Shown here: positions 653 to 22,377 of the stretch, one piece after another | Layout: each line of letters opens with the position of its first letter | Position numbering within the stretch: the stretch's first letter is position 1 | NCBI GenBank assembly: GCA_016211955.1 | Contig: JACRHX010000009.1 | Location: 1-31,918 of the forward strand | Length of the DNA: 31,918 nucleotides | DNA from: Parcubacteria group bacterium | GTDB lineage: Bacteria; Patescibacteriota; Minisyncoccia; UBA6257; JACRHW01 | Reading direction: 5' to 3' | Program-made: the position numbers and the translations under genes | The notes under the pieces: model-generated | Told to the model about the DNA's origin: nothing | What the model saw: the letters and a program-made list of their open reading frames with translations, nothing else | The model's database searches: none

Positions 653-859
653 ATGCAAAAAAAGACAGTTGGTGGCATCGTAGAGGAGGCTCTGCCTGCT
701 GGCACATTTCGTGTCCGTTTAAATGCCAATTCAGTCATTCTCGCCCACCTCTCTGGTAAGATGAGAATTTATTATATTAAAGTAATTCCTGGTGATTATG
801 TGACGGTAGAATTAAGCCCTTACGACGAAACAAAGGGAAGAATCATAAAACGCAGATAA
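653..859 (+). CDS. infA: translation initiation factor IF-1
   Basis: EALP..F.V.L...[12 protein letters not shown]...PGD.V.VELSPYD.TKGRI signature. Confidence 0.97.
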
Positions 860-866
860 ATACGAA

Positions 867-930
867 GTATTTAGTTCTTAGGACTTAGAACGATTACGTT
901 TTACTAAGCACTAAGCACTAAGCACTAATA
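867..930. repeat. TTAG/CTAA heptamer inverted array (CTAAGCA subfamily)
   Basis: Left arm tatttag-ttcttag-gacttag, core aacgattacgtt, right arm (ctaagca)x3-ctaa. Confidence 0.9.
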
Positions 931-933
931 CAC

Positions 934-1047
934 ATGCATGTACGCGCATCAGTAAAAAAAGTGTGTCAAAAATGTAAGCTCGTGCGAAGAAAGGGTCGCC
1001 TTCGTGTTACCTGCGCCATTCCAAAACATAAACAACGACAAGGATAA
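934..1047 (+). CDS. rpmJ: 50S ribosomal protein L36, Zn-ribbon form; absent from the ORF track
   Basis: Manual translation [37 protein letters not shown] (37 aa) between infA and rpsM. Confidence 0.97.
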
Positions 1048-1051
1048 AAAT

Positions 1052-1140
1052 AACTTTAGTGCCTAGTACTTAGGACTTAGAAATTAGTAGGTTATCGTAA
1101 CCTACGACTAAGCACTAAGCACTAAGCACTAAGCACTAAA
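1052..1140. repeat. TTAG/CTAA heptamer inverted array
   Basis: Left arm ttag/ctag heptads, central hairpin gtaggtta-tcg-taacctac (1087-1105), right arm (ctaagca)x4-ctaa. Confidence 0.9.
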
Positions 1141-1143
1141 AAC

Positions 1144-1530
1144 ATGGCACGTATTAGCGGAGTTAATCTTCCAGAACAAAAAAATATAGAAACTGCACTT
1201 ACTTATGTGTATGGTATTGGATCACATCTTTCCAAAAAAATTCTTGATAAGGCGGGTGTTGAACCAAGAAAGAAGGTGAAAGACCTCGATGCCAAAGAAA
1301 TAAAATCCCTCCAGGATGTTATAGAAAGTAAATATAAAACAGAAAACGATTTAAGAAGAGAGGTGAAAACAAACATAAAGCGCCTTAAGGACATTGGGGC
1401 ATACCGAGGAGTACGTCACTCAAAGCATCTTCCTACACGAGGACAAAGAACGAAGACAAATTCAAGAACGGTGCGAGGAAATGTGCGTAAGACCGTCGGA
1501 AGTGGTCGCAGAAAAGTTGATCTCAAGTAA
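1144..1530 (+). CDS. rpsM: 30S ribosomal protein S13
   Basis: MARISGVNLP..K.I..ALTY.YGIG; YRG.RH...LP.RGQRTKTN.RT. Confidence 0.98.
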   Translation: MARISGVNLPEQKNIETALTYVYGIGSHLSKKILDKAGVEPRKKVKDLDAKEIKSLQDVIESKYKTENDLRREVKTNIKRLKDIGAYRGVRHSKHLPTRGQRTKTNSRTVRGNVRKTVGSGRRKVDLK

Positions 1531-1534
1531 TAAA

Positions 1535-1608
1535 GTTTGTTAGGGTTTAGGGGTTAGCATGTTAGGAACGTCCTAAAAAACTAACACCTAAAAAACTAAC
1601 ACCTAATA
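1535..1608. repeat. TTAG/CTAA inverted array (TTAGGAACGTCCTAA core subfamily)
   Basis: 49 bp (1547-1595) are identical to 2745-2793. Confidence 0.9.
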
Positions 1609-1611
1609 CAC

Positions 1612-2064
1612 ATGGGTAAAAAACGTGTTATAGAAGAAACAGGAGACCAAGCACTCAAAGCGAGTAGCGCTCTTGAAGATAAAATTAAAGACGGTGCAAG
1701 CAAGGGTTCAAGTAAACTACTCGAGCGTGGAAAGGCATATATCAATGCCACGTATAATAACACCGTGATCTCAATTACAGATATGCATGGTAATGTGCTC
1801 GCGTGGAATTCCGCAGGAGCGCTTGGATTTAAGGGTCCGAAGAAAGCAACACCATTCGCAGCTGCAAAAGTAGTTGAATCAGTAAGCGAAAAAATAGCGA
1901 AGTCTGGTCCAACAAAAATAGATGTTATCGTGAAAGGTGTTGGTGGAGGAAGAGATTCCGCAATCCGTGCCTTTGCAGGAAGAGGATTTGAAATAGATTC
2001 TATTATCGATATGACTCCTATCCCACACAACGGTCCACGTCCTCCAAAAGTGCGAAGAGTCTAA
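1612..2064 (+). CDS. rpsK: 30S ribosomal protein S11
   Basis: ATYNNT.I.ITD..GN..AW.SAG..GFKG.KK.TPFAA; D.TPIPHNG.RPPK.RRV. Confidence 0.98.
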   Translation: MGKKRVIEETGDQALKASSALEDKIKDGASKGSSKLLERGKAYINATYNNTVISITDMHGNVLAWNSAGALGFKGPKKATPFAAAKVVESVSEKIAKSGPTKIDVIVKGVGGGRDSAIRAFAGRGFEIDSIIDMTPIPHNGPRPPKVRRV

Positions 2065-2098
2065 CCGTTTCTAATAAGCTAAAAACTAAAAAGCTAAT
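2061..2098. repeat. CTAA-arm-only remnant of the array
   Basis: ctaa-ccgttt-ctaataag-ctaaaaa-ctaaaaag-ctaa; the first CTAA contains the rpsK stop codon. Confidence 0.7.
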
Positions 2099-2107
2099 TG
2101 CTCGTAT

Positions 2108-2731
2108 ATGATTGGTCCTAAATGTAAAAAATGTAGAGCAGCAGGAGAAAAACTCTTTATGAAAGGGGAGCGTTGTCTTTCTCCAAAATGTGGAGCAGTG
2201 CGACGCCCTTATCGACCTGGTGTTCATGGTCCAAGCAAAAAACGAAGAAATGTAACCGAATTTGGAAAACAACTTCTTGAAAAACAAAAATTAAAGTGGA
2301 GTTACGGACTACGAGAACAGCAGTTCAAAAAATACTTCAAAGAAGCTCTTGCAGCAAAAGGTGTTACCATTAATCGCCTCGTCCAAACATTAGAGAGGAG
2401 ACTTGATAACGTAGTTTTCCGCCTTGGTTTTGTTCCTTCACGAAGTATGGGGCGGGCATTAGTACGTCATGGGCACTTTCTCGTAAATGGAAGAAAGGTT
2501 ACTATTCCTTCTTTTGCGGTTAAACCGGGAGATATCGTTTCCATCCGTGAAGGCTCAAAGGATAAGGGAGATTTTAAGGATATGGGGATGAAAATGACAC
2601 ACCATGAATCTCCAGCGTGGCTTTCTATGAACAAGGAGTCTCTTGAGGCAAAAATAACAACACTTCCAGAATTACAAGACGTAAGTATTCCATTCAATAT
2701 CAATCTAATCGTCGAATTTTATTCTCGTTAA
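2108..2731 (+). CDS. rpsD: 30S ribosomal protein S4, Cys-containing (Zn-binding) form
   Basis: CKKCR...EKLF.KG.RC...KC; LE.RLDNVVFRLGF; HGHFLVNG.KV.IPSF. Confidence 0.98.
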   Translation: MIGPKCKKCRAAGEKLFMKGERCLSPKCGAVRRPYRPGVHGPSKKRRNVTEFGKQLLEKQKLKWSYGLREQQFKKYFKEALAAKGVTINRLVQTLERRLDNVVFRLGFVPSRSMGRALVRHGHFLVNGRKVTIPSFAVKPGDIVSIREGSKDKGDFKDMGMKMTHHESPAWLSMNKESLEAKITTLPELQDVSIPFNINLIVEFYSR

Positions 2732-2736
2732 ATAAT

Positions 2737-2793
2737 CTAGTTTGTTAGGGGTTAGCATGTTAGGAACGTCCTAAAAAACTAACACCTAAAAAA
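2737..2793. repeat. TTAG/CTAA inverted array (TTAGGAACGTCCTAA core subfamily)
   Basis: Near-copy of 1535-1608; ends 2-3 nt before the rpoA ATG. Confidence 0.9.
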
Positions 2794-2795
2794 TC

Positions 2796-3560
2796 ATGAA
2801 CATTCCTCTTCCTCAAGAACCAATTTTTGAAGATCAAAAAAATAACGTCGGCATTTTTAAGATAGAAGGTCTCTATTCTGGTTATGGTATTACGTTAGGA
2901 AACGCGCTGCGACGAGTTCTTCTTTCTTCTTTAGAAGGTGCAGCAGTTACGTCGTTTAAAATAGAAGGAGTCGATCATGAATTTACAACAATACCAGGTG
3001 TTCTTGAAGACGTTATTCAAATAATGCTTAACCTTAAAAAATTGAGAGTTAAGATTCTTAGCGATGGTCCGGAGACTCTTTTTATACGCGTAAAAGGAGA
3101 AAAAAAAATAACAGGACGCGACATTGAAAAGAATGCAAATGTAGAAATTATCAACAAAGATCTCGTACTCATGACAGTCACCGATAAAAAAGCCTCATTG
3201 GTTATGGAAATTACCGTAGCACATGGTCTTGGTTATCAAACATCAGATAAGATTCAAACAGAAAAACTTTCTATTGGCACCATCGCCGTAGACGCAATCT
3301 TTACACCAGTCAGAAGTGTTCAAGATTCAGTGGAAAAAATGCGTGTAGGAGAACGCACTGACTATGATCGTCTCGTTCTAAAGGTTGAGACAGATGGAAG
3401 CATTTCTCCTCAAGATGCATTTTCTGAAGCAGTAACAATTCTTATCAATCAATTCAAAGCACTTAACGTTGGAACGTCAGAAAATGAAAAAGAGACAGAG
3501 GATGTAACAGAAGAAGAGAGCGAGGAAAAACCTAAAAAAGCAAAAAAGGCAAAAAAGTAA
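2796..3560 (+). CDS. rpoA: RNA polymerase alpha subunit, N-terminal domain only (no alpha-CTD)
   Basis: GYG.TLGNALRRVLLSSL.GAAV...I.GV.HEF..IPGV.EDV; RVGERTDYD.L.L..ETDG.I.P. Only 254 aa, ending in an acidic then Lys-rich tail. Confidence 0.97.
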   Translation: MNIPLPQEPIFEDQKNNVGIFKIEGLYSGYGITLGNALRRVLLSSLEGAAVTSFKIEGVDHEFTTIPGVLEDVIQIMLNLKKLRVKILSDGPETLFIRVKGEKKITGRDIEKNANVEIINKDLVLMTVTDKKASLVMEITVAHGLGYQTSDKIQTEKLSIGTIAVDAIFTPVRSVQDSVEKMRVGERTDYDRLVLKVETDGSISPQDAFSEAVTILINQFKALNVGTSENEKETEDVTEEESEEKPKKAKKAKK

Positions 3561-3564
3561 ACGA

Positions 3565-3639
3565 AGTTTTGGTTTGTTAGGGATTAGTAAGTTAGGAACG
3601 TCCTAATAAGCTAACGTCCTAATAAGCTAACGTCCTAAT
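3565..3639. repeat. TTAG/CTAA inverted array with a 16-bp tandem unit
   Basis: Core ttaggaacgtcctaa; right arm (acgtcctaataagcta)x2 plus acgtcctaa. Confidence 0.9.
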
Positions 3640-3641
3640 GT

Positions 3642-3989
3642 ATGAAACACGTTAACAAGGTACGAAAATTTAGCAGAAAAACCTCCGAACGCAAAGCGTT
3701 TATTAAAAGCTTGAATCACAATCTCGTTATGCACGGTAAGATGGAAACAACCCTCACTCGCGCAAAAGCCATTAAAAGCACGGTAGAAAAACTTGTCACC
3801 GTTGCGAAGAAACAAAACGTTGCCTCTCTACGTCTTTTAATGCGTCGTCTTCCAAAAGTATCTTCAAAAAAACTTTTTCATGAAATCGCCCCAAAATACA
3901 AAGAACGCGCTGGTGGATATACCCGTATTATTAAAGGAAAGAGTCGCATAGCCGATGGAACAACAATGGCTATAATTGAATTTGTCTAA
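3642..3989 (+). CDS. rplQ: 50S ribosomal protein L17
   Basis: MKH....RK.SR....RKA; ETTL.RAK..K...EKL.T.AK; Y.ER.GGYTRI.K...R..DG..MA.IE.V. Confidence 0.98.
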   Translation: MKHVNKVRKFSRKTSERKAFIKSLNHNLVMHGKMETTLTRAKAIKSTVEKLVTVAKKQNVASLRLLMRRLPKVSSKKLFHEIAPKYKERAGGYTRIIKGKSRIADGTTMAIIEFV

Positions 3990-3993
3990 AGAT

Positions 3994-4353
3994 ATGCCTA
4001 CTACTACCAAACCACAAATAATCGAAATGGATGTACAAGAAAAGATGCTTGGCCGTGTTGCCTCAGAAATAGCGTCTCTTTTGCAAGACAAGAATAGCCC
4101 ATTCTACGAACCACGACTTGGAGGAAACAATGTGGTAAGGGTGTTAAATGTACAAAAAATAAAATTGAGTGGTAGAAAAATGGAACAAAAAATCTATTAC
4201 AAACACACCCGGTATCCAGGTCATCTTAAGCAGCTCAGTGCCGAAAAGGTATTTGAAAAAGACCCCACACGTCTCCTAAAAACAGCCGTTTATCGAATGC
4301 TTCCTAAGAATAAGCTACGCGCCAAAAGAATTAAACGACTTATTTTTATTTAA
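3994..4353 (+). CDS. rplM: 50S ribosomal protein L13; probable start is ATG 3994, not the listed 3976
   Basis: LGRVAS.IA..L..K..P.Y.P; YYKHT.YPG.LK; L..AV..MLP.NKL. Confidence 0.96.
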   Translation: MPTTTKPQIIEMDVQEKMLGRVASEIASLLQDKNSPFYEPRLGGNNVVRVLNVQKIKLSGRKMEQKIYYKHTRYPGHLKQLSAEKVFEKDPTRLLKTAVYRMLPKNKLRAKRIKRLIFI

Positions 4354-4357
4354 ACAG

Positions 4358-4441
4358 GTACCTAGTTCTTAGGACCTAGGGCTTAGAACGATTACGTTTT
4401 ACCAAATCCTAACTACTAAGCACTAAGTCCTAAGCACTAAT
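4358..4441. repeat. TTAG/CTAA heptamer inverted array (CTAAGCA subfamily)
   Basis: Shares tagttcttaggac and cttagaacgattacgttttac with the 867-930 copy. Confidence 0.9.
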
Positions 4442-4443
4442 CT

Positions 4444-4899
4444 ATGCCTACTGCTACTAAAGTTAAAAAGACAACTGTAAAAAAAGAGTCTGCCACAAAG
4501 ACGGAAGATACCGAAAAATATTTTTATGGTTTTGGGAGAAGAAAGACAGCTATCGCACAAGTACGCCTTTATCCGAAAAGAAAAGATATTGTGATAAATG
4601 GTAAGGAATTTCATCTCTACTTTCCAGTAAAACGTACACAACTCACCATAGAAGCGCCTTTCAAAAAAATGAAGATTGCTGAATATTTCGGAGGAGATGT
4701 AAAAGTTCTTGGTGGGGGAGTCACGGCACAAGCAGAAGCGATACGTCTCGGTATCAGTAAAGCACTCCTTGCCTTTAACGGAGAGTTCAAACGAAGACTT
4801 AAGCGTGCAGGATATCTCACCCGAGATCCTCGCATGGTGGAACGCAAAAAATACGGTCTCAAGAAAGCAAGAAAAGCGCCACAATGGGGAAAGCGATAA
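4444..4899 (+). CDS. rpsI: 30S ribosomal protein S9 with a short Lys/Thr-rich N-terminal extension
   Basis: GRRKTA.A.VRL; GGG..AQAEAIRLGI.KAL; LTRDPR.VERKKYGLKKARKAPQW.KR. Confidence 0.98.
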   Translation: MPTATKVKKTTVKKESATKTEDTEKYFYGFGRRKTAIAQVRLYPKRKDIVINGKEFHLYFPVKRTQLTIEAPFKKMKIAEYFGGDVKVLGGGVTAQAEAIRLGISKALLAFNGEFKRRLKRAGYLTRDPRMVERKKYGLKKARKAPQWGKR

Positions 4900-4903
4900 A
4901 CGT

Positions 4904-5122
4904 GTATTGAGTATCTAGTATTTTGTATCTGGTATAGCCTTCCCTCCGGAGGACTATTAATTTTGTCATTCTGAGGCATCAGACGAAGAATCTCTCGTTT
5001 TCAGAATTAGCAAAAATAAAGAGATCCTTCGTTGCACTCAGGATGACATGTTATTTTTAATGTTTAAACACATCCACCGTAGACGGATTAATACTAGCTA
5101 CTAGATACAAGATACTAAATAC
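4904..5122. repeat. GTAT/ATAC heptamer inverted array enclosing a REP-like doublet
   Basis: Left arm gtattga-gtatcta-gtatttt-gtatctg-gtat (4904-4934); right arm atactagct-actagat-acaagat-actaaat-ac (5091-5122). Confidence 0.8.
4965..5047. repeat. REP-like doublet (GTCATYCTGAG...GAAGRATCT family)
   Basis: gtcattctgagg...gaagaatctct / agagatccttcg...ctcaggatgac in inverted orientation; relatives at 7112 and 18050. Confidence 0.85.
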
Positions 5123-5168
5123 AAAAACCCCTACACCGGGCAAAACTCCTTAACATAAACAAAGGCTG

Positions 5169-16177: not shown

Positions 16178-16446
16178 ATTACGTTAATTACTGTAATCTT
16201 TTTACGTGATCCATCAAATGCGGTTTTTTGACGTGACGAAAACTTGACGCTTCCAGGAACGATAGCATAAAGTGTATCGTCACCTCCACGTCGAACATTT
16301 TTACCTGGGTGCCACTTTGTACCTCTTTGACGTATCAAAATAGTTCCTGCTTTTACGGGCTGTCCATCGAATTTTTTTACTCCTAAACGTTTTGAGCGTG
16401 AATCTCTGCCCAACTTGGTAGAGCCGCCCGCTTTGGTATGTGCCAT
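16174..16446 (-). CDS. rpmA: 50S ribosomal protein L27
   Basis: [46 protein letters not shown]. Confidence 0.98.
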
Positions 16447-16448
16447 AT

Positions 16449-16547
16449 GTTAGTAATTAGCTTTTAGTATGTTAGGCTATTAGGATATCAAGTTAGAAAT
16501 TGAAAGTTCCGATCTGCTAATACCCTAAAACCTAACCCCTAATAAGC
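16449..16547. repeat. TTAG/CTAA inverted array filling the predicted rpmA 5' leader
   Basis: ttagtaa-ttagctt-ttagtatg-ttaggcta-ttagg ... ctaatacc-ctaaaac-ctaaccc-ctaataag. Confidence 0.85.
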
Positions 16548-22331: not shown

Positions 22332-22377
22332 ATGTCCGCTATAAGCGGACATATACTAGATACACAATACTAAATAC
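22332..22377. repeat. hairpin plus ATAC-heptamer arm, same family as 5091-5122
   Basis: atgtccgct-ata-agcggacat, then atactagatacacaatactaaatac. Confidence 0.7.

Follow-up and report, generated by a model that had tools for sequence, protein, structure and literature searches.

Tandem heptamer repeats abutting start codons have been known for decades without explanation, as is the case for the short tandemly repeated repetitive (STRR) sequences and the TAACTGA repeats. STRR heptamers of heterocystous cyanobacteria are dispersed, intergenic and tandem, their function is unknown, and several families occur per genome. Intervening sequences (IVSs) bearing an open reading frame (ORF) of the PF05635/S23p family are known from the 23S rRNA of Leptospira and Coxiella. 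TAACTGA direct repeats occur in marine Beggiatoaceae, cyanobacteria, and Bacteroidetes (MacGregor 2015, PMC4679880), where two to six 7-nt units, mostly intergenic and in forward orientation, end a few nucleotides from a start codon (PMC4679880). They usually lack a Shine-Dalgarno (SD) sequence, are also found in ribosomal-protein (r-protein) operons, occupy strain-specific positions and are unexplained; only one inverted repeat was described among them and no link to PF05635 was made (PMC4679880). Here, we analyze heptamer arrays of TTAG and CTAA units in the infA-rpsI operon of a Parcubacteria group bacterium (GCA_016211955.1; hereafter G000) on contig JACRHX010000009.1 (C49, positions 1-31,918), the entire 31,918-nt stretch being referred to as the window. 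The TAACTGA direct repeats are the closest published analogue of these arrays.

The G000 assembly comprises 701.6 kb in 67 contigs with 42% GC and is 84% complete. The sole sequencing run containing window sequence is that of a groundwater metagenome, and the sequence is present in DNA metagenome runs only. Among the relatives compared, G001 and G002 are congeners of G000, and G012 belongs to the same order.

Heptamer arrays in the infA-rpsI spacers

Seven of the eight spacers between infA and rpsI carry arrays of the form (TTAGNNN)n-loop-(CTAANNN)n, built of 7-8-nt units around a short or palindromic loop, and the final CTAA stops 3-10 nt upstream of the next ATG (Table 1). The rpsK-rpsD spacer has the CTAA arm alone, and the 4-nt rplQ-rplM spacer is free of arrays. 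Typical units of the CTAANNN type are CTAAGCA, CTAAGTC, CTAACAC, and CTAAAAAA. In subfamily A, CTAAG-type units occur with either the loop GAACGATTACGTTTTAC or an inner hairpin, and subfamily B has the core TTAGGAACGTCCTAA and units CTAAAAAA or CTAACAC. The 49 nt at 1547-1595 recur without change at 2745-2793, and unit number differs among copies. An earlier note on this DNA had described the seven filled spacers including the one-armed one, the arrays ending near the next ATG, the two subfamilies with their 49-bp identity and the variable unit number, all of which is confirmed here.

Six of the seven array spacers fold far beyond their shuffled counterparts (z -3.3 to -6.5, folding free energy -17 to -35 kcal/mol). 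The predicted stems start 2-8 nt past the upstream stop codon and consist of helices of 4-8 bp with internal loops of 1x1 to 3x3 between them; they thus pair more than proposed in the note, according to which the tetramers would pair and the spacer bases would mostly be mismatched.

PF05635 genes between matching arms

The gene-less arrays are members of a family of heptamer-armed cassettes that carry PF05635 genes. G000 has two PF05635 genes, one of which (C22:3837-4154) lies in the atpG-atpD spacer between TTAG and CTAA arms. The right arm of this cassette, which terminates beside the atpD start, has 21 nt in common with an empty copy on C58. PF05635 genes were found in 29 of the 41 genomes of the order (G000 counted), and most of the 24 loci inspected in relatives are located between periodic complementary arms, with the right arm abutting the next ATG. 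In G001, a PF05635 gene (C26:7924-8295) is flanked by GTAT/ATAC arms, which correspond to the second array family of G000. The link between heptamer arrays and four-helix-bundle genes, which had been mentioned in the earlier note, is thereby verified in G000 and its relatives as PF05635 genes within matching arms. No literature linking heptamer arms to PF05635 was found.

The four-helix-bundle protein encoded by the PF05635 gene is Avd-like, carries the annotation “23S rRNA intervening-sequence protein” and is homologous to PDB entry 2GSC, which holds five chains. The family has been likened to Avd, a protein of diversity-generating retroelements (DGRs) (PMC10053308). A classical DGR context was not seen, as neither of the two reverse-transcriptase genes of G000 adjoins a PF05635 gene. 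These genes are located at C6:1830-2444 and C36:2255-2833, and one of them has an in-frame TGA.

In the three best-supported sister groups of PF05635 proteins, the members have arm cores in common. The GTAT-armed G001 protein is nearest to proteins of G015, also with GTAT/ATAC arms, and of G031, with different arms. In 18 of 24 cassettes, G-C skew is higher in the upstream arm than in the downstream one, with more G upstream and more C downstream (p = 0.004). In G012, the helix-6 region of the 16S rRNA contains a PF05635 gene with GCAATTx/AATTGCT heptamer arms (C80:880-1330, locus L104), which fits the PF05635 ORFs reported in 16S and 23S rRNA insertions of the candidate phyla radiation (CPR) (PMC11270868).

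On balance, we favor the interpretation that the window arrays represent an IVS-type hairpin cassette without its gene, which would loop out of the mRNA and is probably a target of RNase III cleavage, with the G-poor arm left as a downstream leader. Full cassette copies hold the PF05635 gene in the loop between complementary runs of 7-8-nt units, and the arms would zip up in the polycistronic mRNA and loop the insert out. For the six folded window spacers, the zipped state is predicted to bring the upstream stop codon and the downstream AUG to within about 2-19 unpaired nt of each other. This corresponds to the range of insert-free spacers in most relatives (mostly 1-40 nt), so that even tightly packed operons would tolerate the insert. 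Cleavage of the stem by RNase III is probable, as for cassettes inside rRNA, and would separate the cistrons. The last CUAA units, left unpaired, would then serve the downstream gene as a short leader that is poor in G and free of an SD; the 16S rRNA of the organism lacks the anti-SD.

Several observations weigh against this interpretation. Predicted folding stability is equal for sense and antisense strands, a comparison made to detect RNA-level selection, and folding energy thus does not mark the hairpin as a feature of the RNA rather than of the DNA. The one-armed copies are unable to form the hairpin. RNase III, which all 20 relatives examined possess, was not found in the 84%-complete G000 assembly. 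Comparison of filled with empty junctions of G000, G001, and G002 revealed no target-site duplication, and no mobilizing enzyme was identified for the element family; to our knowledge, no transposase is known for heptamer-armed elements. G010 and G026 have CTAA arrays above control and gave no PF05635 match, and G014, with 40 arrays against 2 in the control, has a sub-threshold PF05635 match only. Over 30 rpoA neighborhoods, PF05635 copy number and array count were not correlated (rho 0.10, p = 0.6), with a noisy detector.

A more far-reaching version of the cassette interpretation, which we put forward as speculative and rather unlikely, is that the arms are cis sites of an unrecognized gene cassette, for which the pentameric Avd-like PF05635 protein would be the trans factor. 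Each lineage would have its own core and spawn gene-less copies resembling miniature inverted-repeat transposable elements (MITEs), and the cassette would persist only where excision works at the RNA level, that is, in rRNA helices and at stop-start junctions of core operons, where the G-poor arm would double as a portable SD-free leader.

The strict 7-nt period with its conserved tetramer and free spacer bases would also suit arrays bound by an oligomeric protein with affinity for RNA or DNA, one 4-nt core being recognized every 7 nt in the manner of HutP or TRAP. The PF05635 pentamer would be another candidate, given that these proteins are co-inherited with the arm cores and homologous to the five-chain 2GSC. 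HutP recognizes UAG-N4 repeats, a rule that the left arm with UAG every 7 nt would match. Variation of the core between and within genomes makes a conserved cellular regulator unlikely, and arrays occur in genomes in which no PF05635 gene was found; we regard binding arrays of this kind as very improbable.

Turnover among relatives

The rpoA neighborhood was fetched from 29 relatives, and the spacers were read in eight of them. In G001, whose RpoA is 90% identical, an array is present solely in the rpoA-rplQ spacer and is a mosaic of two G000 copies; three of the other four spacers measure 2-20 nt, and the fourth, rplQ-rplM, has an unrelated 126-nt palindromic insert. G002 carries different elements, including (CTAAAAG)5-6 runs with AGCT-type left arms. 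The rplM-rpsI junction therefore exists in three states, with 2 nt in G001, a TTAG/CTAA element in G000, and an AGCT/CTAAAAG element in G002, and the rpsD-rpoA junction is likewise found empty, with TTAG/CTAA, and with AGCT/CTAAAAG over the three congeners.

Other families of the order have arrays with other cores, such as ACGAA/TTCGT and TTGAC/GTCAA. CTAA triplets number 113 in G000, 68 in G002, and 46 in G001, the two other genera of the family have 8 and 1, and such triplets recur in a few other families. A comparison of orthologous spacers, as proposed in the earlier note, thus revealed arrays in some congener spacers, but these are not conserved and their cores differ between lineages. 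The arrays behave like a fast-turning repeat and not like a conserved regulatory leader. The alternative raised in the note, a spreading repeat element, is supported by the dispersed, near-identical copies and by congener junctions that are empty, different or mosaic.

Fast turnover, mosaicism, and the many lineage-specific cores would all be expected of a selfish or neutral repeat, that is, MITE-like cassette remnants with unit slippage which survive where they are harmless and have no role in RNA. The absence of strand bias in folding points the same way, as do the bunching of copies in few operons (8 adjacent pairs of filled spacers against 2.3 expected, p ~0.001) and the breaking of source-metagenome contigs at the arrays, as at other repeats. 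No unit-number variants were seen among the metagenome contigs at the arrays. A neutral repeat does not predict the transcription-sense polarity of one-armed copies, which is 13:0 at starts with TTAG-sense arrays beside stops, and it leaves the asymmetry of the arms in unit number and their uniformity unexplained; we consider it improbable that the arrays are nothing else.

Genome-wide distribution

Arrays of at least three units in G000 amount to 31 of TTAG and 33 of CTAA, which form 46 clusters, and shuffled sequences yielded 0-4. When any 4-mer core was allowed with at least four units, period 7 gave 46 arrays and periods 5, 6, 8, 9, 10, and 11 gave 0-4 each; periods 7 and 8 pooled gave 74 arrays vs 0-1 in shuffles. 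TTAG/CTAA and GTAT/ATAC are the dominant array families.

Thirty-three of the 46 clusters are no more than 16 nt away from where a sizeable ORF starts, and co-directional gene pairs flank 36 of 40 filled spacers. The genes downstream of the window copies encode L36, S13, S11, S4, RpoA, L17, S9, and L27, while elsewhere they encode S16, S12, S7, GrpE, DnaK, LepA, GatC, superoxide dismutase, RsmH, Obg, five ATP-synthase subunits (atpC/D/G/A/F), an ABC ATPase, and several unknowns. The family is also present at rpsL-rpsG-fusA. By contrast with the filling of almost every r-protein spacer that the earlier note had envisaged, genes of the large S10/spc ribosomal operon (C51 and C29) overlap or are 1-14 nt apart, and this operon holds a single 2-unit mini-array. 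The restriction of the family to r-protein and rpoA genes stands within the window, where a further copy precedes rpmA, but not genome-wide, given the copies at atp, grpE, dnaK, lepA, and other genes. Likewise, the genome-wide mapping suggested in the note does give counts far beyond shuffles and adjacent to starts, but a small set of core operons (alpha, str, atp, and dnaK) is preferred, not r-protein genes as such.

In three cases (C35:3705-3708, C59:637-640, and C22:5167-5170), the predicted upstream ORF extends 4 nt into the first array unit. Its stop is apparently inside the unit, as for fusA on C35, where it is the TAG of TTAG. At least three heptamer units supply TAG or TAA in all reading frames.

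Polarity and translation context

In the mRNA sense, the start-proximal arm is CTAA in 32 of 33 clusters. The start-side placement of CTAA in two-armed copies carries no weight, because it follows from their symmetry. In the one-armed copies, CTAA faces the start in 13 of 13, and TTAG-sense one-armed arrays adjoin stop codons instead. Among 654 genes, at least three CTAA units are located just upstream of the start in 25 and at least three TTAG units in none. The CTAA arm has more units than the TTAG arm in 27 of 33 clusters, its mean unit identity is higher (0.43 vs 0.18, p = 0.003), and it often consists of perfect or two-unit (15-nt) tandem repeats. This greater length and uniformity suggest that the start side has recently undergone tandem duplication, consistent with growth in steps of 7 nt or 15 nt.

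This strict polarity, which includes all 13 one-armed copies, raises the alternative of a domesticated translation element, close to the domesticated mRNA structure that the earlier note had offered as its second possibility, in which (CUAANNN)n would be a selected, SD-independent landing pad for the ribosome, for example for the four-domain bS1 that is present in G000. The UUAG arm would mask the run until a ribosome terminating upstream melts the stem base, so that translation would be coupled and its output tunable in operons encoding multi-subunit complexes. Such a role would be in line with the position of the last CTAA, whose first base is at -7 in 11 of 33 clusters and between -6 and -10 in 24, with CTAA being the most enriched 4-mer at -20 to -1 (4-fold), and with the surplus of uniform CTAA units beyond the pairing capacity of the TTAG arm. 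It would also agree with stems that begin so soon after the stop codon, with host genes for subunits of the ribosome, ATP synthase, and chaperones, and with a 16S rRNA that lacks the anti-SD. The TAACTGA heptamers share the forward, start-abutting placement, and the same repeat class also occurs in bacteria that keep SD pairing, which speaks against the landing pad (PMC4679880). Orthologous junctions of the congeners are array-free or have unrelated arrays, the S10/spc operon does without arrays, and the cores vary between lineages and even inside G000. The start-side placement of two-armed copies is trivial, arising from symmetry and insertion into 2-20-nt spacers. Taken together, we judge a domesticated landing pad possible but unlikely.

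Contig C46 (G000:C46:1-120) carries the 3′ end of the 16S rRNA, which past helix 45 reads GGAACAAUUAUUUCAACUAG, without CCUCC. This tail also has no UUAG for pairing to CUAA, and CUAA as an SD-like site was ruled out because the tail lacks a complementary sequence. Pairing with the 16S 790 loop (GAUUAGAUACC) was dropped, since the start-side cores of the two families, CUAA and AUAC, would run in opposite senses with respect to this loop. Twelve relatives of the order likewise have no CCUCC in the 16S tail and no conserved CCUCC further downstream, and anti-SD loss has been reported in a subgroup of Parcubacteria (PMC9297842). The earlier description of an organism largely lacking SD sites accords with this tail, but not with the strong GGAGG-type motifs found at SD distance in 71 of 495 ATG-start genes, which may either be read by something else or mark recently acquired DNA. 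These GGAGG/AAGGAGGT motifs are located 7-10 nt before the start and seem grouped on C4, C9, C15, C19, C62, and C67. Two further upstream motifs were noted, ACTACGGCGAGGCAAAGGAGG directly before four genes (C7:3214-3975, C15:11712-12458, C28:2876-3370, and C47:4700-5026) and TACCTTGAAAA with an SD-like run before at least five small genes.

Gene context and other repeats

The order infA, rpmJ, rpsM, rpsK, rpsD, rpoA, rplQ, rplM, rpsI is backed by Pfam matches (Table 1). RpoA has 254 aa with Pfam matches to the N-terminal dimerization and insert domains only, and no C-terminal domain of the alpha subunit was reported. Rfam covariance models at gathering thresholds gave zero matches across the whole window, r-protein leaders included. 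Scans for promoters (-35/-10 hexamers) and terminators (GC stem plus T-run) returned counts at or below shuffle expectation, with no excess in the spacers. The array spacers are without promoter-like matches, and the lone terminator-like match (1105-1087) is on the antisense strand. Promoter-like sites are located upstream of infA and upstream of the gene following rpsI.

Table 1. Genes and heptamer-repeat elements of the window, in order of position
Feature	Position	Strand	Details
infA	653-859		
infA-rpmJ element	866..928	+	spacer 860-933; fold -19.7 kcal/mol, z -4.8; TTAG arm 871-891, loop ~892-903, CTAA arm 904-928 (CTAAGCA x3 + CTAATAC); rpmJ ATG 934
rpmJ	934-1047		
rpmJ-rpsM element	1055..1139	+	spacer 1048-1143; fold -34.7 kcal/mol, z -6.45; degenerate TTAG/CTAG arm ~1056-1090, perfect inner hairpin 1087-1105, CTAA arm 1108-1139 (CTAAGCA x4 + CTAA); ATG 1144
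rpsM	1144-1530		
rpsM-rpsK element, subfamily B	1540..1606	+	spacer 1531-1611; fold -23.4 kcal/mol, z -3.4; TTAG arm 1540-1565, palindromic core TTAGGAACGTCCTAA, CTAA arm 1573-1606 = (CTAAAAAA CTAACAC) x2 + CTAA; ATG 1612
rpsK	1612-2064		
rpsK-rpsD one-armed copy, CTAA units only	2071..2097	+	spacer 2065-2107; ATG 2108, 10 nt downstream; no significant fold, z -0.03
rpsD	2108-2731		
rpsD-rpoA element, subfamily B	2745..2789	+	spacer 2732-2795; family D2; fold -17.0 kcal/mol, z -3.3
rpoA	2796-3560		
rpoA-rplQ element, subfamily B	3577..3638	+	spacer 3561-3641; fold -26.2 kcal/mol, z -4.2; last 11 nt before ATG unpaired; 3 TTAG units vs 5 CTAA units, as (CTAATAAG CTAACGTC) x2 + CTAA; mosaic ortholog in G001
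rplQ	3642-3989		
rplM	3994-4353		
rplM-rpsI element, subfamily A	4359..4440	+	spacer 4354-4443; family D3, 79% identity to 861-928; fold -26.3 kcal/mol, z -4.0; left arm CTAGTTC TTAGGAC CTAGGGC TTAGAAC, loop as in the 860-933 copy, CTAA arm 4409-4440; ATG 4444
rpsI	4444-4899		
GTAT/ATAC element	4904..5125	+	GTATNNN x5 at 4904-4935, 4 nt past rpsI stop; ATACNNN units ~5091-5125; inverted pair I2
rpmA-leading two-armed copy	16450..16542	-	3 nt between the end of the CTAA arm (mRNA sense) and the rpmA (L27, Pfam) start at 16446

The GTAT and ATAC arms behind rpsI, the latter ~190 nt downstream, surround about 150 nt that include a nested hairpin repeat. In the source metagenome, k-mers of this repeat attain a word depth of up to 138x, compared with ~5x for the flanks. 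About 20 GTAT/ATAC arrays occur in the genome, and the window has a further one at 22353-22377. A separate palindromic element family with ends like CCAGGTAGTGAAAAGTCGAC ... GTCGACTTTCTACTACCTGG is located in S10/spc spacers of G000 (C51:7691-7841 and C29:388-500), and an element of this type is also found in the rplQ-rplM spacer of the G001 alpha operon (L014).

Comparison with known systems

The arrays are a further instance of a repeat class with hardly any explanation, not an r-protein regulator, and spacers of this kind should not be taken for r-protein regulatory leaders in annotation. The genus is a compact test case, with two array families that each have a gene-bearing partner, a 16S-borne cassette in a relative, three-state junctions among congeners, and a clear transcription-sense polarity. 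If the cassette model is true, heptamer repeats, rRNA intervening sequences, and the Avd-like family would be one element class, which would show how inserts live inside tightly coupled operons.

Like the IVSs of rRNA, the cassettes have PF05635 cargo between complementary arms that form a long stem, and the heptamer-armed cassette of G012 is itself inside a 16S gene. The window copies differ in that they are in mRNA spacers and not in an rRNA helix, are gene-less, and abut start codons. As far as the published IVS literature could be searched, periodicity of the arms in heptamers has not been described.

Repetitive extragenic palindromic (REP) sequences and bacterial interspersed mosaic elements (BIMEs), with their REP-associated tyrosine transposases (RAYTs), are also small dispersed intergenic hairpins within operons, and G000 has a Y1_Tnp-like gene; REP elements are without unit periodicity. 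A RAYT/REP model was rejected, as the Y1_Tnp-like gene (C56:8830-9534) is flanked by non-periodic TGAGGTTCAACCTCA-type hairpins and not by heptamer arms. This locus (C56:8790-9590), with an IS200/RAYT-type gene and TGAGGTTCAACCTCA-type hairpins on both sides, has the appearance of a REP/RAYT system of its own. MITEs resemble the arrays in being short and gene-less, in having the same ends as a partner that bears a gene, and in varying in presence among close relatives, whereas the G000 arms are tandem arrays of variable unit number, not fixed terminal inverted repeats, and the junctions of the three congeners show no target-site duplication.

As in STRR sequences, the G000 arrays are dispersed intergenic heptamers of several families. 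STRR sequences have been described as direct arrays, while paired arms, start abutment, and a cassette gene are features of G000. With the TAACTGA repeats, the G000 arrays share tandem 7-nt units in forward orientation that end a few nucleotides before a start codon, but their core is CTAA, and most G000 copies have a complementary upstream arm and form a hairpin.

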